DNA of 64,000 nucleotides, from positions 211,696 through 275,695 of the forward strand of contig CAWDSS010000010.1 of assembly GCA_963805065.1 (NCBI GenBank), given 5' to 3'. This DNA comes from Candidatus Omnitrophota bacterium (lineage in GTDB: Bacteria; Omnitrophota; Gorgyraeia; Gygaellales; Profunditerraquicolaceae). Below are positions 20,270 through 43,003 of this stretch, in pieces (position 1 is the first letter of the stretch; the number at the start of each line of letters is the position of its first letter). A program made the translations under genes and the position numbers. The notes beneath the pieces are model-generated. The model had not been told where the DNA came from and did not search any database. It worked only from the letters and a program-made list of their open reading frames with translations.

Positions 20270-20600
20270 TCCCCCTTAGCTCAGTTGGTAGAGCGAGTGG
20301 CTGTGCGAGGCCAAAGGCCGAAAAGCGCAGCTCCCGCGGGAAACCGCGGCTGAAACTGCAGGAGAATTGCTGGAAGCCCATAGAAAAATATGGGTAATCA
20401 GCAGCCGAGCCTCGCAGAAAGCGAAGCACCAAACCATCCGATAGGTTTGGGTGCCTAACGCAGAAAACGAGGAAGGTTCAGAGACTATGCACCTGCTGCC
20501 TAAAGGGAAACCTATGGTAAAGATATAGTCCACTTCCGAAAGTAATTTCGGGTCAAGTGTAACCACCAGGTCCGAGGTTCGAGTCCTCGAGGGGGAGCCA
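20270..20600 (+). tRNA. tRNA-Asn(GUU) interrupted in the anticodon loop by a group I intron
   Basis: Exon 1 is 20270-20304: TCCCCCT TA GCTC AGTTGGTA GAGC G AGTGG CTGT. Exon 2 is 20560-20600: TAA CCACC AGGTC CGAGG TTCGAGT CCTCG AGGGGGA G CCA. Joined, they give a 76-nt cloverleaf with loop CTGTTAA, U1-A72, G73 and an encoded CCA. Confidence 0.8.
20305..20559 (+). ncRNA. group I intron (IC3-like, tRNA-intron type), 255 nt, no ORF
   Basis: P1 is GCUGU|GC pairing with GCGCAGC, with U.G at the splice site. P2 is CCGCGG-GAAA-CCGCGG, P7 is GACUAU/AUAGUC, J8/7 is AAGAUAUAGUC, P8 is CCUAAAGG-GAAA-CCUAUGG. The terminal nucleotide is G. The core string CAGAGACUAUGCACCUGCUGCCUAAAGGGAAACCUAUGG resembles known bacterial tRNA introns. 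Confidence 0.8.
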
Positions 20601-22244
20601 ATTCTTGTGAAAATCCGAACCTGCTTTTTTCTGGGATAGAGAGCGATAATACGTCTCAATTTCGGGAATTTGGTAAAGGGTAAGCTTAATTTTAAACCAC
20701 TTAGTTCGGATTTTAGTAATAAAAGCCCCACGTTCTTTTGGGGCTTTTTCTTTGGTAGGGTCAAATCCCCATACAGTTATCTCTTTGATCAGCAACTGGA
20801 AGAGCTCTTTTTGATCTTCTATGGGGAGAGAATTAATAATCTTGTCAAAGGAAAGCAGTGTTTTCTTAATCATCTCGGCATCAAGTATGTCCTGTTTACA
20901 GCGCTCAATATCTAAAAGCAGTTTTTCTTTTTGATTCTCAAGTAAGCCCTTTTCTTTGAGTAATGTTTTGTATTCCTCAGTAATTTCTTTTCCTACCATA
21001 TCAGCAGATTTCATAATCTTAATTAGCCTATTAACTTCGGCAGTTGTTTTACCAAGTAAATTATCGGTTTTATTCAAATCTTCTTGAAGCGGTTTAATTT
21101 TCTTTTTATTGATTTGCGTAGAATTCCTGATAGATGATTCTATTAGCGCTTTGTTTTGCCCTAAGTCTACGAGACATTTCTTAATAATATTTTCAAAATC
21201 CCTTGCCGGAAGTGCTCTTACTCTACAGGCTGAATGTTTGCCGTTATCCACAACCTTACCGCAGGCATAATAAAGGTAAGGTATGCCATTTCTATCTTTC
21301 TTACCCGCAGGATAAGGAGTCAGCAAAGTGTCGCATTCGCCGCATTTAGCAAGGCCTTTTAAAAGATGGACATGGGTATCTTTGCTGTATTCTTCCTTTT
21401 TTGGCTTTATAGGCTTTAAAAGCTTATTAGCCTTTTCCCATGTATTAGCGCTTATTATTCCTTGGTGTTCGCCTTTAAATTCTTCATTGTCAAATTGTAT
21501 AAAACCTTTATAGATAGGGTTCGCTATGACTTTCTTAATAAAGTCCTCATTGAGGCGATTCTCGCCAATATTTTTCTTATCTCCATTTTTAGTAGTTATT
21601 GTCCGGGTTTTTGTCCTGAAGCCCTTTGCATTAAGGAAATTTGCAATTTCGCTGGCTTTTCTGCCTTCAATGAAAAGATTAAAAATCTTTTTTACAGCTT
21701 GAGTCTCATGTTTATTAATCAATAATTTTTTTGTTTCTTTGTTGTAATCATAGCCAAAAGGCAACCATCCACCATGCCATTTGCCTAGACGGGCGCGCTG
21801 TTTCATTTTATCCTTTGTTTTCTCAGCAGTATTTTCCCTTTCAAATTGAGCAAAGCTAAGCAAAACATTAAGCATTAGCTTTCCCATTGCATTGGAACTA
21901 TCGAATTGCTGGGTTGCTGAAACAAACGTTACATTATGAGCTTCAAATAGATCCCATAAGCTATAAAAATCTTTAATGCTTCTGACTAAGCGTTCTATCT
22001 TATAAACTATAACAACATCAATTTTGCCGGATTTTATATCTGAAATTAGATTTTGGATACCCGGTCTTTCAAGGTCCTTACCTGAGAAACCCGGATCAGT
22101 ATAGGCGTGGATAAATTTCCAGTCTTTTTCCTTTTGGATCTCAATATAATGTTTACAGATGTCTATCTGTGAATCAATAGAGCTGTATTGTCCTGAGGCC
22201 TGTTCGTCAGTTGAGACCCTTGCATATATGAAACATTTGACCAC
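20553..22244 (-). CDS. large serine recombinase (integrase)
   Basis: N-terminal resolvase domain YARVSTDEQ...SIDSQ, a recombinase domain, a zinc ribbon CGECD...YYACG and a long coiled coil. GTG start after AAGGGGGA. The last 14 codons overlap the tRNA exon 2 on the opposite strand. Confidence 0.9.
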   Translation of the reverse strand: MVKCFIYARVSTDEQASGQYSSIDSQIDICKHYIEIQKEKDWKFIHAYTDPGFSGKDLERPGIQNLISDIKSGKIDVVIVYKIERLVRSIKDFYSLWDLFEAHNVTFVSATQQFDSSNAMGKLMLNVLLSFAQFERENTAEKTKDKMKQRARLGKWHGGWLPFGYDYNKETKKLLINKHETQAVKKIFNLFIEGRKASEIANFLNAKGFRTKTRTITTKNGDKKNIGENRLNEDFIKKVIANPIYKGFIQFDNEEFKGEHQGIISANTWEKANKLLKPIKPKKEEYSKDTHVHLLKGLAKCGECDTLLTPYPAGKKDRNGIPYLYYACGKVVDNGKHSACRVRALPARDFENIIKKCLVDLGQNKALIESSIRNSTQINKKKIKPLQEDLNKTDNLLGKTTAEVNRLIKIMKSADMVGKEITEEYKTLLKEKGLLENQKEKLLLDIERCKQDILDAEMIKKTLLSFDKIINSLPIEDQKELFQLLIKEITVWGFDPTKEKAPKERGAFITKIRTKWFKIKLTLYQIPEIETYYRSLSQKKAGSDFHKNWLPLEDSNLGPGGYT

Positions 22245-22267
22245 GATATCCCCCTTTTTATGGAGGC

Positions 22268-22295
22268 ATTATAGCATTTATTAAGAGGTAGTCAA
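22268..22295 (-). promoter_or_regulatory. promoter of the serine recombinase gene
   Basis: Reverse strand reads TTGACT-16-TATAAT, about 24 nt upstream of the GTG. Confidence 0.5.
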
Positions 22296-22318
22296 CTATA
22301 TTCTACCCGAACTTTTAT

Positions 22319-22449
22319 ATAAGGCTGTGTCCTTTCTTTTGGCTTTAGGGTTTTGGGTGATTTTTTGTTGGGTAAGGTATGCGGTAGCCTTCGGCAGGAT
22401 TGTTGGAAAAACCGCCTGAAGGCTTACCGCAAGCCATTAACTTTAAGCG
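22319..22449. repeat. left copy of the 131-bp inverted repeat
   Basis: Reverse complement of 28832-28962. Two mismatches lie in the central part (22396-22425) and divergence appears only in the innermost ~10 nt. Confidence 0.85.
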
Positions 22450-22474
22450 CTTCCTATAACCTACTGAATAAATC

Positions 22475-22502
22475 TTGACTACGATAACAGATTGTATATA
22501 AT
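22475..22502 (+). promoter_or_regulatory. promoter of the HTH operon
   Basis: TTGACT-16-TATAAT upstream of 22534. Confidence 0.45.
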
Positions 22503-22533
22503 GGTATTAAATCATATACGGATAGGGGTGACT

Positions 22534-22728
22534 ATGGGAAATATATTAGTTACTAAAGAAGTGGCTGAAATGCTGCGAGTGAGCGAAGAATATGTTAGGG
22601 AACTAATTCGCCGAAGAAAACTAAAAGCCTACAAAGAAGGCAGACGCGGAGGCTTTAGAGTGACGATAAAGGCGGTCGAGGACTACATAAATAAAAAACA
22701 CAGAGAAATGGAGGTTTGCAAGAGATGA
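22534..22728 (+). CDS. excisionase-family helix-turn-helix DNA-binding protein
   Basis: LVTKEVAEMLRVSEEYVRELIRRRKLKAYKEGRRGGFRV is the typical HTH_17/Xis-like pattern. Confidence 0.65.
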   Translation: MGNILVTKEVAEMLRVSEEYVRELIRRRKLKAYKEGRRGGFRVTIKAVEDYINKKHREMEVCKR

Positions 22729-22937
22729 AATATGCATATTTCATAGGTGGGTTGGTGGGATTTGGTTTGAGCTTTATAGTTCATAGGTTTTTTATTCAGT
22801 TTATCGTGCTCGCTGTATTTCTCATAATCCTTTATGTTATAGAAAAGAATAGCTGCGATGTAGCAGCATTAAAGAAATCCATTGAAGAGCATAATGAGTT
22901 AATAAAGAAAGACATAGAGGAGATGAAGAGAAAATGA
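22716..22937 (+). CDS. small membrane protein
   Basis: 73 aa with two hydrophobic helices and a charged C-terminal helix. It overlaps both neighbours. Confidence 0.45.
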   Translation: MQEMKYAYFIGGLVGFGLSFIVHRFFIQFIVLAVFLIILYVIEKNSCDVAALKKSIEEHNELIKKDIEEMKRK

Positions 22938-23722
22938 TGGTGAATCTTCGATCTGATTTTTTTCGAGTTTTAGAAGAGAAAAAGTGCTGGTGGGTTATTA
23001 AGTCATTAGAAAGTCAAAATCCTGATGTTAACAGGCAGTTAGAAGAATTTGATAGTGTTGCTTACGATATAGAAACATCTTCTTGCCATAATAAGAGGCT
23101 CTTACATACAAAATGTGAACATGTAATTAACCGAATTACACCAGGAAGAATTGATTTTGTAATTTCACGTGAACTACAGCCGATATCGCTTCCTGAACTT
23201 TATGAACATCAACCGGGAGTAAGGAATATCTTGGAGAGTGCTTATGCTGAGAATGTGTTTCGTGCTTCCGTTCTTTCTGAGATTAAAGTGTTTGATGAAT
23301 TAACTAAATTGAATATAAAGGAAATTAAATTTCTGGAAGAAGAGCCTAAGCGTAAAACACCAGATTTCAAGGTACTGCATAATGGTCAAAATATTTTTGT
23401 GGAAGTTAAATGTATTAACCCAGAGAAAGAAGAAGAACAAAGGATGATGTTTGGTCTTGTTGAATTTGTCGAGCTTAATTCAGGTTGGTGGGAGAAAGTG
23501 AAGAAGAAGCTTTCGGATGCCTTAAAAGATGCTAGGGCTAAATTTGAGGCTGTGAATGCGTATGCTGAAAATTGTAAAAGATGGGTATATGTTTCTATTA
23601 TTTGGTGGAGTGCCGATGCTAGTTCTCAACATGAAGCCCCCGAAAAGCTAATCACTGCTACGTTAATTCATGAGTTTGAAATGGAGTTTGGAGTCGAACT
23701 TAAATTTTTTAAAACATTTTAA
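22934..23722 (+). CDS. hypothetical protein with a possible PD-(D/E)xK nuclease core
   Basis: KTPDFKVLHNGQNIFVEVKC gives a D...E-x-K arrangement. ATGA overlap with the upstream gene. Confidence 0.4.
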   Translation: MMVNLRSDFFRVLEEKKCWWVIKSLESQNPDVNRQLEEFDSVAYDIETSSCHNKRLLHTKCEHVINRITPGRIDFVISRELQPISLPELYEHQPGVRNILESAYAENVFRASVLSEIKVFDELTKLNIKEIKFLEEEPKRKTPDFKVLHNGQNIFVEVKCINPEKEEEQRMMFGLVEFVELNSGWWEKVKKKLSDALKDARAKFEAVNAYAENCKRWVYVSIIWWSADASSQHEAPEKLITATLIHEFEMEFGVELKFFKTF

Positions 23723-23852
23723 GAAAATGATCACTCAGGGATGTAGGATTGTTCTGATGAAAAAATGAATGAAGATCAATTAATTAAATAAGTAATTAGG
23801 GCGCTGGGTAGATACAAAATGAATACGAGTAAATAACATAAGGATAAACGCT

Positions 23853-24170
23853 ATGAAACAAAATGCCTTTCTAATTAAAACCCTATTAGTCAGTTCAATA
23901 ATAATGCTACTCCTTTGTTTCATAACCAGACTCCCTCACGGTTATTACACATTACTTCGCCTCGTTATATTTATTACAAGTGTTATAATAGCCATAGCTG
24001 CTTTTAAGTTTAAGAAAAAGGCGTGGAGTATAACAGTGGGGTTGATTGCTTTTTTGTTTAATCCCATAGTCCCTGTTTATCTAAATAAATCAACTTGGAA
24101 ATTAATTGATTTAGCGGTTGTAGTTCTATTTATTATTTTATTACTTAAGATAAATAAAGACGGCATATGA
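23853..24170 (+). CDS. small three-TM membrane protein
   Basis: 105 aa, hydrophobic throughout. Overlaps the next gene. Confidence 0.5.
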   Translation: MKQNAFLIKTLLVSSIIMLLLCFITRLPHGYYTLLRLVIFITSVIIAIAAFKFKKKAWSITVGLIAFLFNPIVPVYLNKSTWKLIDLAVVVLFIILLLKINKDGI

Positions 24171-24799
24171 GCTGGCTAAATAGTTTTAAAAAAGATGAGC
24201 TTGAAATATGTAAGCTATCAAATCTTATTTTTAAAGCTTCCGCTTCATTGGTAGAAATAATAAAGCCTGACTTAAAAATGAAATTTGGAAAAGACGATAA
24301 AGAATATCATATGAAATATTTTATAGTCTTTAATGAATTTTTGTTCTTTTTTCTTCATATGGCAAATAGATGTACATTTAATCAATTTGGTAATGAAAAA
24401 AAGAATAGGTTAGAGGAAGAACTGCTTCCAATTACTGCTGTAACTTCAATTGCAACTTTATGTAAAGGATGGCCGCAGGAGTTAATAAAGAAAATTGAGA
24501 ATGAATTTTATCAGAATTTTTCTACCGCCGACCAAGAATATAGTGAGGCAAAAGAATGGTTTTTAACATCAGAAGAAAATAAGACTGGTGAAAAATTTCT
24601 TGAAAGTCTAATAAATAACACCCCAAGAAAAAAGAGCAATGGTGTTCTTAATCGTTTAATTGATAATATATCAGTCATTCTTTTTGAGAAAGAGATAGTG
24701 GATTATGTTTTTTCAATACGCATCATCGAGGGCGTAAATGAATTTTTCAACAAAGATTTTCAGGCCTTGGTTTTAAAATCGGTTAAGGAGTTAAAATAG
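24167..24799 (+). CDS. hypothetical protein
   Basis: 210-aa ORF, translationally coupled to its neighbours. No recognisable motif. Confidence 0.5.
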   Translation: MSWLNSFKKDELEICKLSNLIFKASASLVEIIKPDLKMKFGKDDKEYHMKYFIVFNEFLFFFLHMANRCTFNQFGNEKKNRLEEELLPITAVTSIATLCKGWPQELIKKIENEFYQNFSTADQEYSEAKEWFLTSEENKTGEKFLESLINNTPRKKSNGVLNRLIDNISVILFEKEIVDYVFSIRIIEGVNEFFNKDFQALVLKSVKELK

Positions 24800-24802
24800 T
24801 TT

Positions 24803-25309
24803 ATGTGGCCATTTGGTGATGAAATAAGCTTACCTCGGTTTAAAAAAGATATTCGGGGAAACTTAATATTTGAGTTAACAGAAGAAGAGGATCTGGCAGT
24901 ACAAAAACAGTTCGATTCTTTTAAAAGACCGGTAGAGGTATTCGCAGTTAGAAAAGAAGTAGTTGATGAGACAAATCGGGGGATAACAGCGCAAGCGTTA
25001 TTCCATTACGCTACGCTTCAGATAACATTGTCTGGATTTGATTCAAATAAGAATAATAGCAAAGAATTTATTGATAAAGCCATTGCTTCAATAGCGAAGG
25101 CGTACAGTTTTTGTCCCCTGCCTATTTTTATATACGATTTAGCTTGTTTTATAGAAATGAATGGAAGAACAAAAGAGGCAAAAGGCGTGTTTAAAAGTTT
25201 TTTGGATTTGCAAAATAATTTCAAACCAAGTCAGATGCAGGAAATATTTCTAAATACACTAGGAAGAGATATTGATGAAGCGATAAAGGATGCAAAAGTA
25301 AAGCTGTAA
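24803..25309 (+). CDS. hypothetical protein (helical, TPR-like C-terminal half)
   Basis: 168-aa ORF starting 4 nt after the previous stop. Confidence 0.45.
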   Translation: MWPFGDEISLPRFKKDIRGNLIFELTEEEDLAVQKQFDSFKRPVEVFAVRKEVVDETNRGITAQALFHYATLQITLSGFDSNKNNSKEFIDKAIASIAKAYSFCPLPIFIYDLACFIEMNGRTKEAKGVFKSFLDLQNNFKPSQMQEIFLNTLGRDIDEAIKDAKVKL

Positions 25310-25354
25310 AATTACAAGGAATTAGGCCAAAAATATTGAAAAAGAAGGGGGGCT

Positions 25355-25885
25355 ATGAAGAATATAATCAAGTTTTTAAAAAACTCGTCTTTAAGCATTT
25401 TAGGCTTTTCCGTAATCATTTTAATAATGCTTGTAGGGTTAATTGTAATTATTGGACTCGCAAAGATTTCTGAAAAAGTTATGCCATATTTAATGGCGAC
25501 TTCTGTATGGTGTTTGGTCATCTTTGTTCTTTTAATCCTCCCCTTGTCGTTGATTAAGCCCTTAAGAAGCATCTTGTCCATAATTTCTTATATTTTCTCT
25601 TTCGTTTTCGGAATTTTTACTTGGTCATTAGCCCTAGTATCGCTATGGTTCTATTGGGGGTTCTTATCAATATTCTTAATTTTGTTCTTACATGCGTTCG
25701 TTCCGGCTGCCATGATAGTGCTTTTATTTAAAGGGCAATTCTCTGTAATATTGACACTTCTAATCGGTTTAATCTTAACTTACGGTATGCGATTTTATAG
25801 CCTATGGTTAGGAAGCTTGCAGTATAAGAATCAAAAAAGCAAAACTGATATCATTGATATTAGCTCGTCATCTATAAACGAATAG
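25355..25885 (+). CDS. polytopic membrane protein
   Basis: 176 aa with about five hydrophobic helices. GGGGGC-type RBS region upstream. Confidence 0.5.
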   Translation: MKNIIKFLKNSSLSILGFSVIILIMLVGLIVIIGLAKISEKVMPYLMATSVWCLVIFVLLILPLSLIKPLRSILSIISYIFSFVFGIFTWSLALVSLWFYWGFLSIFLILFLHAFVPAAMIVLLFKGQFSVILTLLIGLILTYGMRFYSLWLGSLQYKNQKSKTDIIDISSSSINE

Positions 25886-26077
25886 ATATTAATGTTGTAG
25901 AAAGTTTATTGTGGAAAATGAATAAAACCCAGTTAACAGCTGCTTGTATTATTGCAATCTCGCTATCAATAATCTCTCAAAAAAACCTTGACGACAACAG
26001 AATTATAATGTATAGTTAAATTGTCTTAAGTTTTTGATAATTTGGTGAAGATTCAAACAGCCTTATTGGAAGAACCA

Positions 26078-26126
26078 AGGGGCTGGTTTTCGAATATCTC
26101 AAGTTCGGAAGCCAGCCCCTTTTTTT
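26078..26126 (+). terminator. rho-independent terminator of the cargo operon
   Basis: AGGGGCTGGTTTTCGAA...TTCGGAAGCCAGCCCCT followed by TTTTTT. The two non-Watson-Crick positions are U.G only on the + strand. Confidence 0.65.
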
Positions 26127-26129
26127 GTG

Positions 26130-26158
26130 TTGACAAAGGTAAAATCACGATGTATATT
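26130..26158 (+). promoter_or_regulatory. promoter of the replication-module leader
   Basis: TTGACA-17-TATATT. Confidence 0.5.
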
Positions 26159-26164
26159 TTAACT

Positions 26165-26287
26165 AGTAGTAAACAAATTAGTTTTATCCAGTCGCAGTAT
26201 ACTCGGTCTCGTAACTTAAGTGGATCAGAGCAAAACCGGGCTGGCATTTCCGAATTAAAAAGCGGAAGTGCCAGCCTTTTTGTTTTT
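26165..26287 (+). ncRNA. candidate ~120-nt leader or small RNA ending in an intrinsic terminator upstream of the replication genes
   Basis: The promoter at 26130-26158 is followed by the hairpin GGCTGGCATTTCCG...CGGAAGTGCCAGCC (26239-26276) plus TTTTTGTTTTT. The single wobble is U.G only on the + strand. Confidence 0.35.
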
Positions 26288-26312
26288 GGCCAAGTAGGAG
26301 ATTTATGAAAAC

Positions 26313-26546
26313 ATGAATAATAACACCTATTCAACAAACGACCTCTGGCTTTCAGCTTTCCTAAAGGCAAAAGGCTTAAAGATTATCCGCATTGAAGGCA
26401 ATAACCGAAGAGCTGTCTTTGTTTTTGAGGATACCCCAGATAGAAAAGACTTAATCGAAGAATTCTACAATAACGGCTCTATAGGCATAACTTTAATTAA
26501 AAACGCCATGGCAGATTTGAAATCTGCCATTTTTAACATGGAGTAA
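26313..26546 (+). CDS. small phage/plasmid-associated protein (DUF5659-like)
   Basis: TNDLWLSAFLKAKGLKIIRIEG..RRAVFVFED matches the pattern I recall for that family. Confidence 0.45.
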   Translation: MNNNTYSTNDLWLSAFLKAKGLKIIRIEGNNRRAVFVFEDTPDRKDLIEEFYNNGSIGITLIKNAMADLKSAIFNME

Positions 26547-26559
26547 ACAGGAGCAAAAA

Positions 26560-28590
26560 ATGCAAGATGAAAAGATTAATGAATTAGTCGAACAGTATCA
26601 TAAAGCTTTACCTGAACGAATCCGCACCTATCTTAACCAGCGCTGTCTTCCTAACGAAATCATCAATAAATTCAAGATCGGCTGGACCGACTCAGCAATC
26701 AGCATACCTATTTATAATAAAGATAATCAATATACCTTCTTCAAATTCCGCAAGGACCCTTTTTCGGATTCAAGTAAGCCAAAATACTTATTTACTAAAG
26801 GAGCTGAAGCTGACCTCTATGGCTGGGAGAATATAACTAATCCGGGGCCTTTCTTGGTAATCTGCGAAGGTGAATTTGACCGCTTAGTCCTTGAAGCTAG
26901 AGGTATTCCGGCAATAACCTCTACAGCTGGGGTAGGGACCTTTAAAGATGAATGGATTGTTTGTTTAAAAGATATCTCTAATCTCTATATCTGCTTTGAT
27001 AGGGATGAAACAAGCATGGCTGCTGCTCAAAATATGATTGAAAAATTGCCACATGCCAAATATGTTTCTTTATCAAAACTGCCTCAAGGCAAAAAAGATA
27101 TTACGGATTTCTTTGTTGCAGGAAATACTACAGCTGATTTTAACCGGCTCTTAAGAGAAGCTAAAAGCCTTGATGAATTCCATTTCTGCTTTAACGCGCT
27201 AGGCTCAAACGAAGTTAATTTTCTTCACCCCTCACAGGACTTCTTGGGCAATACTGCTTATTTTACTATTCCCTTTACCGAGTACACCAAAGACGCAAAA
27301 AATCCCTTTAAGCAGCTCTATTATGTACTAACCAGCGAAAGAAAGCTCTTGAAGCTAGAAGACAAAGCCGAATTCTACAATAAATACGGCAAAGTCATTA
27401 AAGAGCTGCCCTTTATAAGGAATCCCGAGCCTCGCTGGCAGGCTGAGGCAATAAAAGAATTTATCTTTAACGGCTATACTCCCACGCCTTATAGGGTTCA
27501 TGCTGAAATAGAACGCATCTATTACAAGTATTCTGAAATAAAAGACCCTGGCTGGTATTTAGTGCTTCCTCTTTGGGTTATCGGCACCTACCTTTACTAC
27601 CTTTTTGAAACTTACCCATATCTAGCTTTTGAAGGCTTAAAGAACACCGGAAAATCCAAAACTGCCCGGCTTACCACACGTATGTCCTTTAACGGCATCT
27701 TCTCGGTAAATGCCTCAGAAGCTACTCTCTACAGAGATATTGAGAACTTAAGGCCTACCTTTGGTATAGATGAGGCTGAGATCTTAAAAGACCCGGAAAA
27801 ATCCAAGTCTATCCGCGCAATCCTAAATGCCGGCCACTTTAAAGGCGCCTGCGTCTTAAGGCAGGAGAAAACCCCTAAGGGAGAGTTTTACACCCGTAAA
27901 TACAGCGTATACTCACCTAAACTTATTGCTAACACCAAAGGCCTGGAAGATACCCTGGAAAGTCGGACCATTAAGATAATCATGCTTCGGGCCAAGACCG
28001 AGAAAGGCCTTCTTCTTGACACGGAAACCTCTGAAAACTGGAACTATATTCGGCACCTCTGTTATACATTCGCCCTCTGCTTCTTTAAGGAAATAAGGAA
28101 TATTTACCTGAATGATCCTCAGGTAAAAATCGCTAACAATAGATTTAACGACCTCTGGTGTCCTCTCCTCTCAATAGCCAGGTTTATCTTTCTTAACCAC
28201 GATCAGGATAAATTTAAGCAGATTAAGGATTTTGCCCTTGAACAGATAGGCTTTTCCCAAGATGACAGCCTGGATGACCGCACAAGTGCCTTTCTTAAGG
28301 CTTTAAAAGACTTAACTTTAGCTACCGATACTGCCAGCTCAAGTGAGCAGATAAAGAAGGCAATGCAGCCCTATTTAGAGGATGAAGATTTCCTGGGAAT
28401 AACTGGCAAATGGATCGGCTGGAAGATGCGCTCTTTTGGCTTAAATAAAGATAAACATAGAATAAATAAAGGGTACCTCTATCATCTCTCTAAGAAGGAT
28501 ATAGATGACGTCTTAGGAAGGTATCTTGAGCCAGACTATCTACCTCAAGAAAAAACTACATCAACTACACAAACTACACCAACTGCATAG
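26560..28590 (+). CDS. Toprim-domain primase fused to a C-terminal P-loop-like replication domain
   Basis: Toprim motifs VICEGEFD and FDRDETS. Later GLKNTGKSKT is Walker A-like. 676 aa. Confidence 0.7.
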   Translation: MQDEKINELVEQYHKALPERIRTYLNQRCLPNEIINKFKIGWTDSAISIPIYNKDNQYTFFKFRKDPFSDSSKPKYLFTKGAEADLYGWENITNPGPFLVICEGEFDRLVLEARGIPAITSTAGVGTFKDEWIVCLKDISNLYICFDRDETSMAAAQNMIEKLPHAKYVSLSKLPQGKKDITDFFVAGNTTADFNRLLREAKSLDEFHFCFNALGSNEVNFLHPSQDFLGNTAYFTIPFTEYTKDAKNPFKQLYYVLTSERKLLKLEDKAEFYNKYGKVIKELPFIRNPEPRWQAEAIKEFIFNGYTPTPYRVHAEIERIYYKYSEIKDPGWYLVLPLWVIGTYLYYLFETYPYLAFEGLKNTGKSKTARLTTRMSFNGIFSVNASEATLYRDIENLRPTFGIDEAEILKDPEKSKSIRAILNAGHFKGACVLRQEKTPKGEFYTRKYSVYSPKLIANTKGLEDTLESRTIKIIMLRAKTEKGLLLDTETSENWNYIRHLCYTFALCFFKEIRNIYLNDPQVKIANNRFNDLWCPLLSIARFIFLNHDQDKFKQIKDFALEQIGFSQDDSLDDRTSAFLKALKDLTLATDTASSSEQIKKAMQPYLEDEDFLGITGKWIGWKMRSFGLNKDKHRINKGYLYHLSKKDIDDVLGRYLEPDYLPQEKTTSTTQTTPTA

Positions 28591-28672
28591 GTGTAGTTTT
28601 AGTGTAGTTTTTGTGCAGTTTTTAAAAGAGCTTTGTGCTTAAAGTGTAGTTAATGCAGTTTATGCAGTTTTT
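28563..28672. repeat. iteron cluster (candidate replication origin)
   Basis: About nine copies of GTGYAGTT/TGCAGTT. Three are inverted (AACTACAC, AACTACAC, AACTGCA) inside the end of the primase ORF and six are direct after its stop. An AT-rich stretch follows, with AAATTAATTC repeated twice around 28727-28750. Confidence 0.6.
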
Positions 28673-28831
28673 AAGGGAGGCTGACGGGGATTTAGAATAG
28701 CAAGACTCGAAAATGGTAAAATTAATTCACAAATTAATTCTCAAGGATTTAAAAGGTCAATGCACATTATCGCTGGTTACGGATGCTAATTATTTTGCGC
28801 ATTATTTTTTAACGATGTTCTTTTATTACAA

Positions 28832-28962
28832 ACGGTTAAGTTAATGGCTTGCGGTAAGCCTTCAGGCAGTTTTTCCAACAACCCTGCCGAAGGCTACCGC
28901 ATACCTTACCCAACAAAAAATCACCCAAAACCCTAAAGCCAAAAGAAAGGACACAGCCTTAT
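28832..28962. repeat. right copy of the 131-bp inverted repeat
   Basis: See 22319-22449. The outer end includes the AT of the ATG of ORF 28961. Confidence 0.85.
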
Positions 28963-29728
28963 GAGCAAAGGAAGAATTACCAGAAAAGAGCAGGAATATA
29001 GGATTAGCGCATTGCTTAGGTTTATCTTTATTTTTAGGTTTGCTACCAGAGAGCAGCTTTATGAGTTTAGTCAAAAGAGACTTGGATTAACCTATCCGCG
29101 CTGGCTAGTTGATTACTCCACGAAACGAAACTTTATTACCTCATACCAAGAGTCAAACTTAGGGCTTAAGGTCTATTATTTAACCCAGAGAGGCCAGGGT
29201 TTTATCCACAGATACGAGCCTTTTAGCAACCGCTATTATTTCAACCACAGGCATACGGGTTTTAATACCTTTGAGCACCAAAAAGCCGTAATTGAAAGCT
29301 ACTATATCCTTTATGAGCAATCCGCTATAAAAGAATGGGCTCCAGAGTGGGTTATCAGGAAAAAATTCAGGCTGAAATCCAAGATTCCTGATGCCTTAAT
29401 AGTCTTAAATTCTGGCATGAAAATAGCCCTTGAAGTTGAAACGTGGTATAAACAGCGGGGCGAGTGGAAAGTCGTAGTCTATAAATACAAGCATGAAATG
29501 CCCAGATATGATGCTGTTTTAATCATAGCTTATTCCAGCTCTAATTATGAAGGCATCCGGGATAGGCTATTCTATATCCTGCCAGAATTCTCTGTAAAAC
29601 TATTTATTATTACGGATTTGGCTTTACTTAAACAGGGCCAGTGCTTTTACCACGGCAAACTTAGGCAGTTAGAAGAAGCCCTTAGTCTAATTAGCCAGCA
29701 GTTTAGCGATCAGCAAAGCAAGGGTTAA
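28961..29728 (+). CDS. replication-relaxation family protein (wHTH plus PD-(D/E)xK-like C-terminus)
   Basis: N-terminal RFATREQLYEF...YYLTQRGQGF and C-terminal IPDALIV...IALEVETW. Confidence 0.5.
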   Translation: MSKGRITRKEQEYRISALLRFIFIFRFATREQLYEFSQKRLGLTYPRWLVDYSTKRNFITSYQESNLGLKVYYLTQRGQGFIHRYEPFSNRYYFNHRHTGFNTFEHQKAVIESYYILYEQSAIKEWAPEWVIRKKFRLKSKIPDALIVLNSGMKIALEVETWYKQRGEWKVVVYKYKHEMPRYDAVLIIAYSSSNYEGIRDRLFYILPEFSVKLFIITDLALLKQGQCFYHGKLRQLEEALSLISQQFSDQQSKG

Positions 29729-29754
29729 AATTGGGTATGTACAGAAATATTTCT

Positions 29755-29907
29755 ATGACTCAAAGGTTAGACAGGATTGGTGAATTATTAGCCAAAGGAG
29801 TATTTCTGTATTTGAAGAACGAGCAAGGAAAATCCGCAAAGGAAGAAAATAAAGAAAATGCTGAGGAAGAAAATAAATCAGCAAATTTCAAATCTAAAAT
29901 TGATTGA
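29755..29907 (+). CDS. possible small ORF (50 aa, or 56 aa from 29737), not in the ORF track
   Basis: Hand translation MTQRLDRIGELLAKGVFLYLKNEQGKSAKEENKENAEEENKSANFKSKID. No clear RBS. Confidence 0.2.
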   Translation: MTQRLDRIGELLAKGVFLYLKNEQGKSAKEENKENAEEENKSANFKSKID

Positions 29908-29931
29908 CAAATACATTGGAAGGTGTATATT
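29904..29931 (+). promoter_or_regulatory. promoter of the fic gene
   Basis: TTGACA-16-TATATT, followed by a tandem CTCATATAAT duplication and AAAGGAG before the ATG. Confidence 0.45.
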
Positions 29932-29990
29932 TGGTATATAATCTCATATAATCTCATATAGTTGAAATACGAGTTTAAAAAGGAGCTTTC

Positions 29991-31043
29991 ATGCCCAATG
30001 TCTTTAACCAAAGGTTAGAAAATCTTCCGCCAGAAATCTGGTCAAAAATCACCAAGATAGAAGAATTAAAAGGTCAATGGATTATAGGCGCGCGGTTAAG
30101 CCCCCAGGTATTAGGCCGGCTCAAGAGGTCGGTCTTGGTTACCTCAACCGGAGCTTCCACGCGCATTGAAGGCGCCAGGCTTTCCGATGAAGACATAGAA
30201 AAGCTTATGCGCGGGATTTCAATACACAAATTTGCCGACCGCGACAAGCAGGAAGTAAAAGGATACTATGAGTTGCTGCAGAATGTCTTTGATTCTTGGA
30301 AGCACATCCGTTTTTCCGAAAATACAGTCAAGCATTTCCATAAAGAGCTTCTAAAATACGTCCAAAAAGACAGGCTTCATCGGGGCGAGTATAAGAAAAC
30401 CGAGAATAAAGTCCATATGATTGATGCCGAAGGAAAATCTGTCGCCATTCTTTTTGATACCACGCCGGCATATCTTACGCCTAAAGAGATGCAGGAATTA
30501 GTTGAGGCAGCGCAAAATGCCTTTAAGGAAAATAAATATCCCCCTTTGTTGATCATAGGGAATTTCCTGGTTGAATTCTTGAAGATCCATCCTTTCCAAG
30601 ACGGCAATGGACGCATTTCGCGCATCCTTACGAATTTACTTTTATTGCAGGCCGGTTATCAGTATATGCCTTATGTCTCACACGAAAAATTAATAGAAGA
30701 CAACAAGGCCGACTACTATATGGCTTTAAGAAAAAGCCAGAAAACGTTAAAAACCAAACCCGATATTGTTCCTTGGCTGGATTTTTTTCTCTCAGTGGTT
30801 TATAAACAGTCACAATTGGCAGTTGAGCTATTGTCTAAAGAAAACATTGAAAAATTATTATCGCCGAAACAAATCGCGGTCTGGGAATATTTACAGACTG
30901 TTGCCGAGGCATCACCGAAAGATATCTCGAAGAATGCCAAAGTCGCCCTGCCAACGGTAGCCCAGGCCTTGGATAAGCTAATTCGCCTTAAAAAAGTTGA
31001 GCGCATCGGGCTTGGTAGGAGCACAAGATATAGGAAGATCTAA
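29991..31043 (+). CDS. fic: Fic family protein (AMPylase-type), class II with an internal inhibitory helix and a C-terminal wHTH
   Basis: Active site HPFQDGNGRISR. N-terminal STRIEG fits [ST]xxxE[GN]. Confidence 0.9.
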   Translation: MPNVFNQRLENLPPEIWSKITKIEELKGQWIIGARLSPQVLGRLKRSVLVTSTGASTRIEGARLSDEDIEKLMRGISIHKFADRDKQEVKGYYELLQNVFDSWKHIRFSENTVKHFHKELLKYVQKDRLHRGEYKKTENKVHMIDAEGKSVAILFDTTPAYLTPKEMQELVEAAQNAFKENKYPPLLIIGNFLVEFLKIHPFQDGNGRISRILTNLLLLQAGYQYMPYVSHEKLIEDNKADYYMALRKSQKTLKTKPDIVPWLDFFLSVVYKQSQLAVELLSKENIEKLLSPKQIAVWEYLQTVAEASPKDISKNAKVALPTVAQALDKLIRLKKVERIGLGRSTRYRKI

Positions 31044-31303
31044 GAAAAAATAATTTATGGGAACTACGACATTTTTTCTAAGGCATAATGATTTGACTAA
31101 GCCCTTAAACAAAATGGGCAAGAAAGAATTAGAAAAACTCAGTAATTTTTCACCTTATGTTAAGACGCCTAATTATGCTGGCTGGCAGGTACCATTAGAG
31201 CTTCATAATGGTAATGTATATCTCTTAGTATTTTAGAATGGCAGGTTAATGAAAATCGAAGAGGCGCCCAGGATTCTAAATAAAAAATATTACAGCAGAC
31301 ATC

Positions 31304-31576
31304 GTGGTAAAGAAGTCAACGAGTATGAATGGACTGTTTTTAAAAAATACGTCTTGGCAGAAATACAGAGGCTTGATAAAGAATTTAAGAAATCGTTACG
31401 AAAAAATTAAAGCCAATATTCGTATATACGATTATGTTGATCGGAAAATTTCTGTGTTGGCTGCAATGTATAAAAAGCGATTAATAGCTTATAGGGTTAT
31501 GGGCTACAAGATTAAGGATGATACATCTCCTGTTAGAGAATTAATAGACAACAAGCCATCGCTGGCCGTTTCTTGA
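31304..31576 (+). pseudogene. probable remnant of the C-terminus of an SF2 (SSL2/COG1061-like) helicase
   Basis: Only the last ~55 aa look helicase-like (ANIRIYDYVDRKISVLAAMYKKRLIAYRVMGYKI). The region upstream has overlapping short ORFs in other frames. Confidence 0.25.
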
Positions 31577-31630
31577 GTTATTTAAACCGGCTATTAGCTC
31601 TACAGAAAAGTTCGGGAATCTACCCCTATC

Positions 31631-31788
31631 GGGGAGCCAATCGTAAAAATGCCCATTGTTAAACAGTGGGCATTTTTATTTAGGGCTCCCCCTCGAGGAT
31701 CCCCGAAGTGCCGCAGGCACGAAGGGGATCTTAGTTCAGGGGAGCTTGATTTTCCAACCCTCTGTGATAGAATATATTGCAGAGGGTT
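31631..31788. repeat. 158-bp composite repeat, copy 1: tRNA-end remnant, bidirectional terminator, tRNA-end inverted copy in a hairpin, promoter plus palindrome
   Basis: Near-identical to 33891-34048, with about 8 differences by eye. Confidence 0.85.
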
Positions 31789-31825
31789 ATGTTTTGGAAT
31801 AAACTAATAATAAGGAAATAGGTCT

Positions 31826-32059
31826 ATGGAAATCATAACTGGTATTATTCTTGTGATATTAGGATGCCTTATAATTAAATTTGGCGATAGGCAATTCGGT
31901 AAATACGGCTCTATTTCAAAATGGTTATTTAACCCACCTTGGTATAATGATGGCTACATTAAATTTAGCAAAAAACTAACGAAGTGGGTATTAGGTTGTG
32001 TATTAATCTATTTGGGAATTGTTCTTATTTTCAATAAAATGTCTTGGATTGGTCTATAG
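31826..32059 (+). CDS. small two-TM membrane protein
   Basis: 77 aa. RBS AAGGAAATAGG. Follows repeat copy 1. Confidence 0.45.
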   Translation: MEIITGIILVILGCLIIKFGDRQFGKYGSISKWLFNPPWYNDGYIKFSKKLTKWVLGCVLIYLGIVLIFNKMSWIGL

Positions 32060-32125
32060 TAAGATAAATAGGTTCTAACTAATAACCAGTAGTTCTTGGT
32101 ATAATTTTTCTGCCCCTTCTGACAT

Positions 32126-32202
32126 CAGAAAAGTTCTAAACTCGTCCACGATGGGGAGCTTGTATTTCCAACCCTCTGTGATAGAATATATTGCAGAGGG
32201 TT
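32126..32202. repeat. short version of the repeat module (CAGAAAAGTT...GGGGAGC plus promoter and palindrome)
   Basis: CAGAAAAGTTCTAAACTCGTCCACGATGGGGAGC, then AACCCTCTGTGATAGAATATATTGCAGAGGGTT. Confidence 0.8.
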
Positions 32203-32249
32203 TTTATTGCTGGAAGCAGTGGAGAGGGAGAAAAAGATAGGAGGAGAAA

Positions 32250-32528
32250 ATGGCAATATGTCCTATGTGTAATAAAAAATTTTACCCTTGGGGTTATTGG
32301 TTTTTAAGAGGTATTACTTGGTGTTCTTGTGGAGCACAATTAAGATTGAAGAATTGGATTTTTTGGCAATTCGTTCCTCTTACCCTCGCCCTGGGAAGCA
32401 TATTCGTAATTGTTTGGTTATCCTCTGCGTTTAATGTTTCTTTAAAAATGCTCTCTTTATGTTGGTTATTATTTATTATTGGGTTGTATCTTATGACAGT
32501 TTTATTTGCTAAATTTATAAAATATTAA
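32250..32528 (+). CDS. small membrane protein with an N-terminal zinc-ribbon-like CxxC...CxC
   Basis: CPMCNKKF...CSCG followed by two TM helices. RBS AGGAGGAG. Confidence 0.5.
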   Translation: MAICPMCNKKFYPWGYWFLRGITWCSCGAQLRLKNWIFWQFVPLTLALGSIFVIVWLSSAFNVSLKMLSLCWLLFIIGLYLMTVLFAKFIKY

Positions 32529-32618
32529 AATACTATATGGTACCCAATCGCTCTTATTTTTGTTATGGCTATTTATTTTCTTGCACGCCCTCAAAATAAA
32601 GGAGCAGTTTAAGTAACA

Positions 32619-32815
32619 GCGCTAATTTAGCTAAATTAGCGCAAATTCCTTTGCAAGGTCATAAAAGAGATTAGCCTCCGCACTCATCAAAAAGTTATTA
32701 AACTCGTCCAATAGGGGGAGTAAATTCTTTTTTCAGGGCTGAACTTAAAACGTTACAGCCCTTTTTGTTTGCTTGTAATTTTATGATTTGTGATAGAATA
32801 TATTGAGGAGGGTTT
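32619..32815. repeat. repeat module, copy 3: 24-nt perfect palindrome, att-like remnant, terminator, degenerate promoter and palindrome
   Basis: GCGCTAATTTAGCTAAATTAGCGC lies at 32619-32642. 32643-32720 resembles 33817-33897. The TGATAGAATATATTG core lies at 32791-32805. Confidence 0.75.
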
Positions 32816-32919
32816 GTTACTATATTAACAATCTGTCACTAAAGAGCGGCGGCGGGGTCAAAATAGTTCTAATTTTTGCGATATTTACAGGTTAAGGACT
32901 AAATCTACGGGGTATAAAA

Positions 32920-33699
32920 ATGGCGAATCAAATTTCGCTCTCAGCAATATTGCTCGTTAAAAATGAAGAGGCAAAGATTGAGGAATGTCTTAAATCTATT
33001 TATGGATGGGCTGATGAGATTATTTTGGTAGATGATTTTAGTAGTGATAAAACAGTTAAAATTACTGAGCGATATACCGATAAAATCTTCCAGAGGAAAA
33101 TGGATAAGTATGGTACACAGGCTAACTGGGCATTTACTAAGACGAAAAATGACTGGATATTATCTTTGGATGGTCATGAAATTGTAACTGAGGAATTAAA
33201 AAAAGAGATAGCTATTATCTTACCTACAGATACCGAGCATGTCGCTTTTGATATACCCATACGAAATTACATCGGTAACTACTGGGTAAGATATGGCGGT
33301 TGGTATCCTGGTTCAAAGGTTAGACTTTTCAGAAAAGATAAATTCAAATATGAAGAAGCAGAAGTTCATCCACGTGTATTTATTAACGGGAAGTGTGGTC
33401 ATCTACACGGGGATATTATCCATAAAGGATACCTTGACATTGAAAACTTCGTGAGTACCGTAAATCGCCAGTCTACTTTAGAAGCAATCAAGTGGATAAA
33501 TACTGACAGAAAAATGACTTTGGTGCATATTATTTGGCGTACAGTTGACCGATTTTTTCGCAGATTCCTGCGTAAGAAAGCCTATAAGGATGGAATATAC
33601 GGGTTCGTTATTGCCTATTGCGACAGTCTCTATCAGGTTCTAAGTTATATCAAATATCTAGAGATGAAGAATAAGAGGAACACATCGACCTCAGAGTAA
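32920..33699 (+). CDS. family 2 glycosyltransferase
   Basis: SAILLVKNEE...EIILVDDFSSDKT is a typical GT2 N-terminus. DGHE may be the DxD-like site. Confidence 0.8.
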   Translation: MANQISLSAILLVKNEEAKIEECLKSIYGWADEIILVDDFSSDKTVKITERYTDKIFQRKMDKYGTQANWAFTKTKNDWILSLDGHEIVTEELKKEIAIILPTDTEHVAFDIPIRNYIGNYWVRYGGWYPGSKVRLFRKDKFKYEEAEVHPRVFINGKCGHLHGDIIHKGYLDIENFVSTVNRQSTLEAIKWINTDRKMTLVHIIWRTVDRFFRRFLRKKAYKDGIYGFVIAYCDSLYQVLSYIKYLEMKNKRNTSTSE

Positions 33700-33890
33700 A
33701 GTAACAATTTAAGTAATCACAGTAAATTCTTGATACAGCTTTTCCGCTTTCCCTGAAGCCAGAAAAGTTATAACCTCTTCCAATAGTACAAATTAGCGTA
33801 AATTTAGTTAAATTAGCGCAAATTCCTTTGAAAGGTCATAAAATAGAGTAGCTTCTGTGCTCAGTAAGAAGTTATTAAACTCGTCCAATA

Positions 33891-34048
33891 GGGGAGCCAA
33901 TCGTAAAAATGCCCATTGTTAAACAGTGGGCATTTTTATTTAGGGCTCCCCCTCGAGGATCCCCGAAGTGCCGAAGGCACGAAGGGGATCTTAGTTCAGG
34001 GGAGTTTGACTTCCTAACCCTCTGTGATAGAATATATTGCAGAGGGTT
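33891..34048. repeat. 158-bp composite repeat, copy 2
   Basis: See 31631-31788. Its promoter reads TTGACT-16-TAGAAT with TG at the extended -10 position. Confidence 0.85.
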
Positions 34049-37323: not shown

Positions 37324-37326
37324 AAA

Positions 37327-40823: not shown

Positions 40824-40847
40824 TTCCCCTTTGGCAATGATAAAAGA

Positions 40848-42086: not shown

Positions 42087-42212
42087 AACTGTTAAGATAC
42101 CAAAATAGATTGTTTTGTGGCAAAGATCCCAAATCACATTGATTTGGGGCGATAGGCACTGGAATAATGTATTCCAGTGCCGTAGTCTTTTTTCATTAAT
42201 GAAAAAAGACTA

Positions 42213-42303
42213 CGGAGAGGCTGGGATTTGAACCCAGGGACCCAGTTTTGACCAGGTCAACTCATTAGCAGTGAGTTGCTTTCAACCGCTCAGCCACCTC
42301 TCC
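42213..42303 (-). tRNA. tRNA-Ser(GCU)
   Basis: Reverse strand GGAGAGGTGGCTGAGCGG...ACTCA CTGCTAA TGAGT, long variable arm, GGTTCAAATCC T-loop. No encoded CCA. Two hairpins follow downstream (42150-42212). Confidence 0.85.
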
Positions 42304-42909: not shown

Positions 42910-42922
42910 AATTTAAATTAAA

Positions 42923-42996: not shown

Positions 42997-43003
42997 AATA
43001 AGA

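Follow-up and report, generated by a model that had tools for sequence, protein, structure and literature searches.

A probable integrative element that encodes a large serine recombinase and adjoins the 3' end of a tRNA-Asn gene in Candidatus Omnitrophota

The element and its limits

The subject of this work is a 64-kb stretch (64,000 nucleotides [nt]) of contig CAWDSS010000010.1, assembly GCA_963805065.1, from a Candidatus Omnitrophota bacterium of sample ERR10755942; the whole stretch is referred to here as the window. It contains a gene for a large serine recombinase (LSR) that overlaps an intron-containing tRNA gene on the opposite strand. Judging from sequence, window positions 20603 to 31641 are very probably an 11-kb Omnitrophota integrative element that was inserted by its own LSR at the extreme 3' end of tRNA-Asn(GUU). 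An earlier note on this DNA had described a serine-recombinase island at the 3' end of an intron-containing tRNA gene with att-like remnants after it. That description was borne out, and the limits of the island were refined to 20603-31641. The defining features are given below; L numbers designate loci and contigs from other genomes, and P numbers designate homologues of the LSR.

20270-20304, + strand: tRNA-Asn(GUU) exon 1, ending at U35; identical to intron-less relatives (GAGCGAGTGGCTGT / TAACCACC)
20305-20559, + strand: group I intron in the anticodon loop, between U35 and U36; Rfam RF00028, with limits set by comparison with intron-less tRNAs
20560-20600, + strand: tRNA-Asn exon 2 including CCA, the B arm of attL; recognized from the tRNAs of relatives
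20553-22244, - strand: large serine recombinase, 563 amino acids (aa); recognized from Pfam domains and homologues
20592-20602, + strand: attL core GGGGAGCCAAT; from the 11-mer repeat and the attP comparison
20603-20622, + strand: P' arm, with ATCCGAAC at 20613-20620, 12 nt past GGAGCCA; encodes Ser-Asp of the LSR tail
31603-31641, + strand: attR, made up of P arm U1 (AAGTTCGGGA at 31608-31617) and core GGGGAGCCAAT (31631-31641); collinear with the attP of L053, L054, L055, and L059

The boundaries are marked by the 11-mer GGGGAGCCAAT, which occurs at 20592, 31631, and 33891, compared with 0.02 occurrences expected from shuffles; the direct copies at 31631 and 33891 had been pointed out before and were confirmed. 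An uninterrupted attP (...ATTAGCTCAATAGAAAAGTTCGGATTTCTCCTATTCTCGGGGAGCCAATTCTTATGAAAATCCGAACTTGCC...) was found in L053, L054, and L055, which come from three samples and encode the LSR homologue P0016, and also in L059. The adjoining LSR in these four contigs is 76% identical to the window LSR, and their attP is collinear with window positions 31584-31641 joined to 20603-20680. The 32-mer of tRNA exon 2 was not seen by eye in any of the four, and ARAGORN reported no tRNA in L053. The attP of these related contigs therefore places attL at 20592-20602 and attR at 31631-31641 and gives an island of 11,039 bp. Independent support for the boundary came from L041, in which a homologue of the right end in the window stops at GAGCCAA. 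L050, whose LSR is 75% identical to that of the window, has a second copy of GGGGAGCCAAT 10.3 kb from its tRNA, with a similar P arm before the core.

Conserved motifs were observed on both sides of the core. The motif ATCCGAAC lies 12 nt past GGAGCCA in the window, L045, L048, L050, and L053, and 11 nt past it in L056 (LSR 45% identical), while AAGTTCGG lies 16 nt before GGGAGCC in U1 of the window and in L050, L053, L038, and L041. These spacings therefore define attP as a dyad, AAGTTCGGAT-N34-ATCCGAACTT, of about 54 bp, with the consensus AAGTTCGG(A/G)(T/A)-N34-ATCCGAAC(T/C)T and the GA of GGGGAGCC at its center. The dyad was seen in L053 and reconstructed for the window, and it is located within the 3' coding end of the LSR gene. 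Serine integrases use a non-palindromic central dinucleotide, and the spacing of the dyad would put the crossover at the GA of GGG(GA)GCC. The size and symmetry of this attP fit the LSR family. The tRNA in L056 is crossed in another reading frame (GSPTWIRT...), and the conserved item there is therefore the DNA and not the tail peptide.

The block of identity between attL and attR is 11 bp, of which 9 nt are tRNA. Because the crossover is so near the tRNA end, only ...GAGCCA, approximately the last 6 nt of the tRNA, can derive from the element. The proposal that the element had rebuilt the tRNA 3' end survives in reduced form, in that the tRNA is intact but the rebuilt part can extend over only these ~6 nt. 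In the proposed mechanism, the circular form would carry attP within the 3' end of the LSR gene (predicted junction ...CTACCCCTATCGGGGAGCCAATTCTTGTGAAAATCCGAAC...), and attB would consist of the tRNA T arm, the acceptor end, and the downstream terminator (predicted junction ...GAGTCCTCGAGGGGGAGCCAATCGTAAAAATGCCC...). Recombination between attP and attB would give attL, composed of the tRNA and the P' arm that forms the LSR 3' end, and attR, composed of P arm U1 and the old tRNA flank. The tRNA would be left intact because the element provides ...GAGCCA. The order of events, the activity of the LSR, and the directionality factor are all putative. The T-loop sequence GGTTCGAGT was considered as the B-arm counterpart of AAGTTCGGAT, from which it differs in lying 6 nt nearer the center. 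This is suggestive of LSR geometry, but B' has no matching motif, and the pairing was kept as a tentative one.

The recombinase and its C-terminal tail

The LSR contains the Pfam domains Resolvase (PF00239, 9.4e-40, residues 5-156), Recombinase (PF07508, 7.1e-14), and Zn_ribbon_recom (PF13408, 3.4e-07). The motif YARVSTDEQ, which includes the nucleophilic serine Ser10, is visible in the translation, and residues ~380-470 look heptad rich by eye. In LSRs, a coiled coil inside the zinc-ribbon domain governs directionality, and excision depends on a directionality factor. The best matches among solved structures were the catalytic domain of TP901-1 integrase (3.8e-28) and SPbeta YokA/SprA, and the best NCBIfam similarity was to CcrB, far under the CcrB cutoff. 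By its domain content the enzyme is a bona fide LSR, and its nearest characterized relatives are distant. At an E value of ≤1e-20 there were 2,042 homologues, the nearest 47 of which are 64 to 91% identical to the window protein.

The LSR open reading frame (ORF) covers exon 2 completely on the antisense strand and does not stop until the TGA at 20553-20555, inside the final 7 nt of the intron. The opposite-strand overlap reported in the earlier note is thus real, but the ORF does not end inside exon 2 as had been stated; it traverses the entire exon and stops in the intron. The last 15 codons are the antisense of exon 2 and of the intron end. The LSR stop in L048 is the UAA antisense to U35-U36-A37. 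In the window that codon is split by the intron, and the ORF is three codons longer. In the integrated state, the LSR of intron-less hosts ends at this UAA.

Most close homologues end in ...NWLP(L/R)E(D/G)SNLGP.., the antisense translation of the tRNA-Asn 3' end, and of 110 near-full-length homologues, at least 72 have tails with the T-loop-antisense signature. Different endings were found in P0016 and P0019, namely, ...NWLPENRRNPNFSIELILGL.. and ...NWLPDRERFPNFSIELIVGL.. (..NWLPENRRNPNFSIEL.. and ..NWLPDRERFPNFSIEL.., respectively). Reading the window LSR frame by hand, with 20603 joined back to 31641, gave the tail WLPDRGRFPNFSVELIAGL... (WLPDRGRFPNFSVEL..), which is like those of P0016 and P0019. 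In the attP state, the LSR would have another 30-aa tail beyond the common Trp-Leu-Pro.

The interrupted tRNA-Asn gene

The Rfam family RF00028 (group I intron) matched positions 20295-20552 on the + strand with 76.9 bits; the split tRNA gene was not detected by an ARAGORN run on the window. The tRNA of intron-less relatives reads ...GGCTGTTAACCACC... or ...GAGCGAGTGGCTGTTAACCACCAGG... and has the anticodon GUU. Their sequence therefore identifies the window gene as tRNA-Asn(GUU) and sets the exon and intron limits. The classic bacterial hosts of such introns are the tRNAs Leu-UAA, fMet, Arg-CCU, and Ile-CAU, and to our knowledge tRNA-Asn is not among them.

Scanning one-genome-per-species contigs with the exon-2 32-mer yielded 42 loci (L003-L044), nearly all of them in metagenome-assembled genomes of Candidatus Omnitrophota. 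A search for exon 1 placed it in 28 of these loci, at 36 nt upstream (no intron) in 16 and at 230 to 406 nt upstream in 12; in the remaining 14 it was not placed. In at least 13 relatives, tRNA-Asn comes after the conserved block tRNA-Arg/tRNA-Ser-DnaX-RecR-ABCF (window positions 35404-43000) and shares its strand, and in the window and five relatives it is convergent with ABCF. The two orientations, compared across L006, L009, L012 to L014, L017, L024, L027, L032, and others, therefore indicate that the tRNA and the integration hotspot were inverted together in some lineages.

Recurrence in other genomes and absence from collinear relatives

The overlap between an LSR gene and a tRNA gene was found repeatedly. 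In L048, L050, and L052, which have a RecR/DnaX neighborhood and LSRs of 74 to 75% identity, ARAGORN placed a tRNA-Asn gene antisense to the 3' end of the LSR gene. The same tool placed tRNA-Asn over the LSR 3' end in L056/L057 (45% identity) and tRNA-Gln(CTG) over it in L058, from Elusimicrobia (47% identity). Moreover, in 11 of the 42 loci this Omnitrophota tRNA is adjoined by an LSR of only 23 to 35% identity. The cargo is wholly different between elements, with metal resistance genes in L045 and L050, a large helicase and HicAB in L048, and AbiEii and a radical SAM protein in L053. Judging from these overlaps, the window LSR is a member of a widespread clade of recombinases whose targets are tRNA genes.

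The arrangement LytB, tRNA-Asn, ABCF in L009 is collinear with that in the window, with 1.6 kb between the tRNA and ABCF, compared with 14.8 kb in the window. The island genes were absent from L009 and from the similarly arranged L006, L027, and L017; the relatives compared for presence or absence are other species. Tetranucleotide composition deviates over 21 to 30 kb, with z up to 5.1, and the GC content there is 0.33 to 0.36 versus approximately 0.40; the k-mer profile proposed in the earlier note thus sets this stretch apart.

Two further observations were made in the course of these comparisons. In L045, which among the long contigs carries the closest LSR (91%), positions 11560-11760 in the reverse-complemented view contain two convergent LSR genes with overlapping 3' ends and no tRNA. 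The junction there, ...CTTCGCGGAGCCAATTCTTGTG..., therefore indicates that the att region or 3' end of one element apparently received another element. Elsewhere in the window, 6 to 10 kb is also deviant in tetranucleotide composition (z = 2.4 to 2.6); a 428-aa protein with a Peptidase_S74 (endosialidase chaperone) domain is encoded at 7871-9157, beside DUF1573 and M48 peptidase genes.

Gene content of the island and a 125-nt inverted repeat

The following features lie between the LSR gene and attR.

22319-22443: left arm of an inverted repeat, 125 nt, 98% complementary to the right arm
22492-22728, + strand: excisionase-family DNA-binding protein with an HTH_17 domain; Pfam HTH_17 1.1e-11, PHROG excisionase families, TIGR01764 3.7e-09
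22934-25885, + strand: cargo ORFs of 262, 105, 210, 168, and 176 aa, function unassigned; the lowest-GC stretch (0.31 to 0.35)
26313-28590, + strand: DUF5659 protein followed by a 676-aa Toprim primase, a replication module; Pfam, PHROG DNA primase 6.8e-24
28838-28962: right arm of the inverted repeat, 125 nt; its end is the ATG of the next ORF
28961-29728, + strand: 255-aa protein with weak similarity to MobC/replication-relaxation proteins; NCBIfam NF041423 5.8e-08, under the curated cutoff
29991-31043, + strand: Fic-domain protein like the SoFic defense protein, cargo; Pfam Fic 3e-15, PADLOC SoFic 7.6e-41

The HTH_17 protein is a candidate directionality factor or regulator. None of the five cargo ORFs matched a Pfam, PHROG, or PADLOC family, the sole weak PADLOC match being that of the 262-aa ORF to TmtA (E value, 2e-4). 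No capsid, terminase, or conjugation genes were detected in the island. By its gene content, the element is probably a small replicative island of the mobilizable or satellite type.

The inverted repeat flanks a 6.4-kb module that extends from the HTH gene through the primase. The DUF5659-primase pair is also present in L014, L045, and L060. In L045 and L046, whose LSRs are 91% identical to that of the window, the 125-nt repeat was seen once, upstream of the LSR, and other cargo follows it; in L045 the module has the window orientation and the repeat is single in the stretch examined. In L060, with an LSR of 88% identity, the DUF5659-primase module is opposite in orientation and lies directly against the LSR, the junction falling exactly at the repeat. 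This orientation therefore indicates that the segment was inverted during the history of the family, and it may be invertible. The replication operon reads toward the MobC-like and Fic genes in the window and toward the LSR in L060. An invertible segment of the Hin/Gin/Cin type was considered and rejected, as those systems have a small serine invertase with a C-terminal HTH and inverted sites of ~26 bp, whereas here the sole recombinase is the 563-aa LSR and the repeat is 125 bp.

Motifs resembling the P arm stand outside both repeat arms, at 22306-22316 (AAAAGTTCGGG, minus strand), between the repeat arm and the LSR promoter, and at 28979-28992 (CAGAAAAGAGCAGG). They could be recombinase binding or autoregulation sites, or they could be due to chance.

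Attachment-site remnants downstream of the island

Between 31.6 and 34.05 kb, the window contains an array of short repeated features and a few genes.

31645-31677: hairpin terminator T', taken to be the pre-island tRNA flank (B' side)
31684-31744, second copy at 33944-34004: segment X, with an inverted tRNA 3' 16-mer, a GC-rich hairpin, and a GGGGAG end
31756-31788, + strand: Pterm copy 1, native tRNA-Asn terminator, promoter-like; adjoins the tRNA in L008, L022, and L040
31826-33699, + strand: three genes among the remnants, which encode small membrane proteins of 77 and 92 aa and a 259-aa glycosyltransferase of the GT2 family
32126-32202, + strand: module M2, with P-arm remnant U2 (32126-32159), a spacer, and Pterm copy 2 (32170-32202)
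32688-32815, + strand: module M3, with P-arm remnant U3 (32688-32720), a different terminator, and a degenerate Pterm (32789-32815)
33760-33786, + strand: U4, a truncated P-arm remnant without the core
33863-34048, + strand: module M5, with P-arm remnant U5, core GGGGAGCCAAT at 33891-33901, a second T', a second X, and the third Pterm (34016-34048)

The five ~35-nt units listed in the earlier note are present at 31603, 32126, 32688 (given there as 32687), 33760, and 33863, and that at 33760 lacks the GGGGAGC core. A search with the 3' half of the unit gave 3 matches, compared with 0.04 expected by chance, all within 32138-33897. The units had been said to resemble the tRNA, and this is true of the last 16 nt of U2, U3, and U5 (13 to 14 of 16 positions), but they are mainly element-side P-arm remnants. 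Indeed, the P arms of attP or attR from other genomes can be aligned with U2, U3, U4, and U5, and the signature AGAAAAGTT is common to both. The possibility that the units are independently decayed tRNA 3' halves was largely rejected because they share both AGAAAAGTT and the core spacing with attP/attR. U2, U3, and U5 keep the GGGGAG core in direct orientation on the + strand, with the full 11-mer in U5 alone. No recombinase was found by Pfam among the scanned genes between the remnants. The zone thus consists of attR-type junctions (P arm, core, and former tRNA flank), with one gene between successive junctions and small genes thereafter.

The terminators of the array have counterparts beside intact tRNA genes. 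The palindrome AACCCTCTGTGATAGAATATATTGCAGAGGGTT occurs at 31756, 32170, and 34016, with a degenerate copy at 32789. It stands directly after the tRNA in L008, L022, and L040, where it is the tRNA terminator, and the flank past the first Pterm copy matches L008 for 30 nt more. The Pterm hairpin also scores as a sigma-70 promoter with an extended -10 (TTGACT, 16 nt, TGATAGAAT). A reading of CCCTCTGTGATAGAATATATTGCAGAGGG as a promoter/operator repeat only was revised, since relatives show a native tRNA terminator; the promoter score stays. A homologue of the GT2 glycosyltransferase (48% aa identity) directly follows the tRNA in L032. Pterm is 96 to 98% identical between the window and L038 (3710-3764 and 5300-5351), the two genomes being ~70% identical, which suggests selection or recent exchange.

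Arrays of the same type are present in L038 and L048, and in L048 an exact displaced tRNA 3' end (GAGTCCTCGCGGGGGAG) precedes the terminator. The P-arm units and Pterm were found nowhere else in the window, and related ones occur at the same locus in L038 and L048; as far as these comparisons reach, the units are not a dispersed repeat. No further att remnants were found between 34054 and the ABCF gene. These arrangements support repeated use of one hotspot by one element family, i.e., accretion, and would agree with the repeated events that the earlier note had proposed for this site. Module M5 could serve as an alternative right end.

The tRNA 3' 16-mer TCCTCGAGGGGGAGCC is found inverted at 31684-31699 and 33944-33959 (minus strand), just past the bidirectional terminator. 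Together with the att core, the inverted 16-mer makes a 61-nt imperfect palindrome, after which comes the GC-rich hairpin, and a 126-nt stretch folds at z = -9.3. Before the island was present, the inverted 16-mer would pair with the tRNA end as a long palindrome across T'. An Rfam scan of 31.5 to 34.2 kb gave no meaningful family match, and none was attC-like.

Alternative explanations

Several points weigh against insertion of the 11-kb element by its own LSR followed by accretion. The attP evidence comes from a related element and not from the window element itself, and a metagenome scan with the attP pattern found one contig only, the same element as L053. An exact-sequence look-up of the window LSR protein found no record elsewhere, and a scan of viral contigs found no LSR relatives. 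Comparison with island-less relatives, which the earlier note had called for, yielded collinear genomes without the island, but the predicted empty site (tRNA and then T', ...GGGGGAGCCAATCGTAAAAATGCCC...) was matched by 0 of the 42 relatives' flanks. No clear equivalent of the B-arm motif is present in T', the B' flank, and the attB dyad is thus putative. The directionality factor is a guess. Finally, in the modules at 31631 and 33891, T'-X is identical at 113 of 114 positions, the 11-nt spacer that follows is identical at 7 of 11, and the hairpin after that is identical; near identity of T'-X beside so diverged a spacer misfits simple sequential integration and decay. Module M2 has the same junction without T'-X. 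No single order of events was derived that covers both the T'-X identity and the diverged spacers. Composite transfer via an alternative right end at 33901, or local conversion, may account for the T'-X identity.

In the first of these, which we consider rather unlikely, what moved, or still moves, is a 13.3-kb unit at 20603-33901. A previous copy would have excised via the U5 core at 33891 acting as attR, carried 2.26 kb of former-host flank (T'-X-Pterm, two small genes, and GT2), and reintegrated beside the orthologous flank. Such a transfer would account for the 164-nt direct repeat (31625-31788 and 33885-34048; 153 of 158 positions identical from the core on), and the expected U5-to-P' junction would be ...AAACTCGTCCAATAGGGGAGCCAATTCTTGTGAAAATCC.... 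The core at 33891-33901 equals the attL core at 11 of 11 positions in the same orientation, and the two copies are homologous from the core as far as the base of the Pterm hairpin. A chromosomal origin is suggested for the internal 2.26 kb by the sequence past the first Pterm, which is similar to the native L008 flank, and by the position of GT2 beside the tRNA in L032. Accretion followed by cis-mobilization is known for elements of the ICESt1/ICESt3 type. However, the outer motif of U5 is poor (AAGTTATTAA versus AAGTTCGGAT), the uneven divergence of the two copies (1 of 114 in T'-X versus 4 of 11 in the spacer) is unexpected for orthologous flanks, and neither a 13.3-kb circle nor its junction was observed.

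Alternatively, the downstream repeats could have arisen by local duplication or gene conversion of a terminator/promoter module that serves the small genes, with GGGGAGC being merely a part of that module. The three Pterm hairpins are identical at 33 of 33 positions, and each is both terminator-like and promoter-like, with an extended -10, and stands upstream of a gene; the T'-X identity and the close match of Pterm to L038 point the same way. Nevertheless, a P-arm homologue in the same orientation (AGAAAAGTT..., 15 to 16 nt, GGGAGC) precedes each module and has no promoter role, and this layout recurs in L048 and L038, where Pterm is preceded by displaced tRNA 3' ends that are genuine (GAGTCCTCGCGGGGGAG). 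We therefore hold this origin to be quite improbable.

It is hardly credible that the LSR is not the island integrase but a resolvase or invertase (e.g., for the segment between the 125-bp repeats) or cargo, another enzyme such as a tyrosine integrase having been lost: tRNA 3' ends are indeed typical of tyrosine integrases (PMC7192596) and the segment flanked by the inverted repeat occurs in both orientations among relatives, but a tyrosine recombinase (Phage_integrase) domain was found in 0 of the 10 island ORFs scanned with Pfam, the P' arm is part of the LSR gene itself and joins the P arm without a break in contigs of the attP form, overlaps of LSR and tRNA genes are found in many independent contexts, for LSRs 23 to 91% identical and with wholly different cargo, and the protein has the Recombinase and zinc-ribbon domains of integrases and not the short HTH tail of invertases.

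Significance

Large DNA is inserted unidirectionally mainly by means of serine integrases, and the natural targets of these enzymes are nearly always protein-coding or intergenic. Their use of tRNA genes has so far been hinted at only computationally: t(m)RNA genes are used by 4.9% of serine integrases (14 of 297 serine-integrase islands) versus 44.5% of tyrosine integrases, and the authors of that survey described such use as "not reported previously" and called for experimental proof (PMC7192596). The remark in the earlier note that tRNA targeting is atypical for serine integrases agrees with these figures. Searching the literature further, we found no characterized case of a tRNA-targeting serine integrase.

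The sequences described here define a populous LSR clade with a consistent design, namely an attP dyad, an 11-bp core, and a tRNA-Asn or tRNA-Gln 3' end. They offer ready-made attP/attB pairs for experiments, with attB sites conserved across a phylum, and they bear on the question of why tRNA genes are used so differently by the two types of integrase, tyrosine and serine. For the Omnitrophota, which are uncultured and genetically little studied, a major integration hotspot and a family of small islands have been identified, the cargo of which includes defense (SoFic and AbiEii), toxin-antitoxin, and metal resistance genes.

A more far-reaching scheme that would join these observations is speculative, and we doubt that it holds in full. 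In it, an LSR clade of 45 to 91% identity in Omnitrophota, Elusimicrobia, and others would have evolved for tRNA acceptor/T-arm ends, with attP placed inside the 3' coding end of the LSR gene. The swap of the C-terminal tail, between 12 to 15 aa of tRNA antisense ending at or just past the anticodon-loop antisense and ~30 aa in the circular form, could act as an integration sensor, and the recombinase-less att modules would be cassettes picked up by the element via alternative right ends, in an integron-like array for gene capture driven by a serine recombinase.

Comparison with known systems

The window LSR resembles TP901-1 Int, SPbeta SprA, CcrB, and phiC31 Int in its architecture of Resolvase, Recombinase, and zinc-ribbon domains, and the attP resembles theirs in being a dyad of ~50 bp with a non-palindromic central dinucleotide and a short block of identity between attP and attB. 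Sequence identity to the characterized LSRs is, however, low. Unlike them, the window element targets a tRNA gene (Asn, and Gln in a relative) instead of a protein-coding or intergenic site, and its attP lies inside the 3' coding end of its own LSR gene, so that the ORF crosses the site and the C-terminal tail varies with the integration state.

The layout is like that of the tyrosine-integrase islands recognized by Islander/TIGER, with an intact tRNA at one end, a repeat of its 3' portion at the other, and the integrase gene beside the tRNA. Likewise, integration restores the tRNA, relatives lack the island, and remnants lie in tandem at the site, a hotspot. In contrast to those islands, the repeat here is only 11 bp, because the crossover would fall at the acceptor end and not within the anticodon loop or T loop. 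The recombinase is of the serine family, which places the element outside the Islander-type definition, that of a tyrosine integrase.

Among accretion arrays of ICEs (integrative and conjugative elements) and of cis-mobilizable elements (CIMEs), those with ICESt1/ICESt3 of Streptococcus thermophilus involve a tyrosine integrase and target the fda gene. The downstream modules of the window are like the CIMEs beside ICESt1/ICESt3 in being att-bounded, recombinase-less segments in tandem with an element and in the same orientation, for which alternative ends are possible. They differ in the serine integrase and the tRNA site, and mobilization of the remnants is putative here. In Sulfolobus viruses of the SSV1 type, attP is within the int gene, the enzyme is a tyrosine recombinase, and integration splits int in two. 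The window element shares with SSV1 a recombination site in the recombinase ORF, a gene altered by integration, and a tRNA target; unlike in SSV1, only the last ~15 to 30 codons are exchanged and the enzyme domains stay intact. An integron was considered and rejected, as there is no IntI tyrosine recombinase and no attC and the modules have their own promoter-like element. The general biology is thus familiar; the pairing of this enzyme type with this target is rare and, as far as sequences can tell, is now backed by many independent instances.

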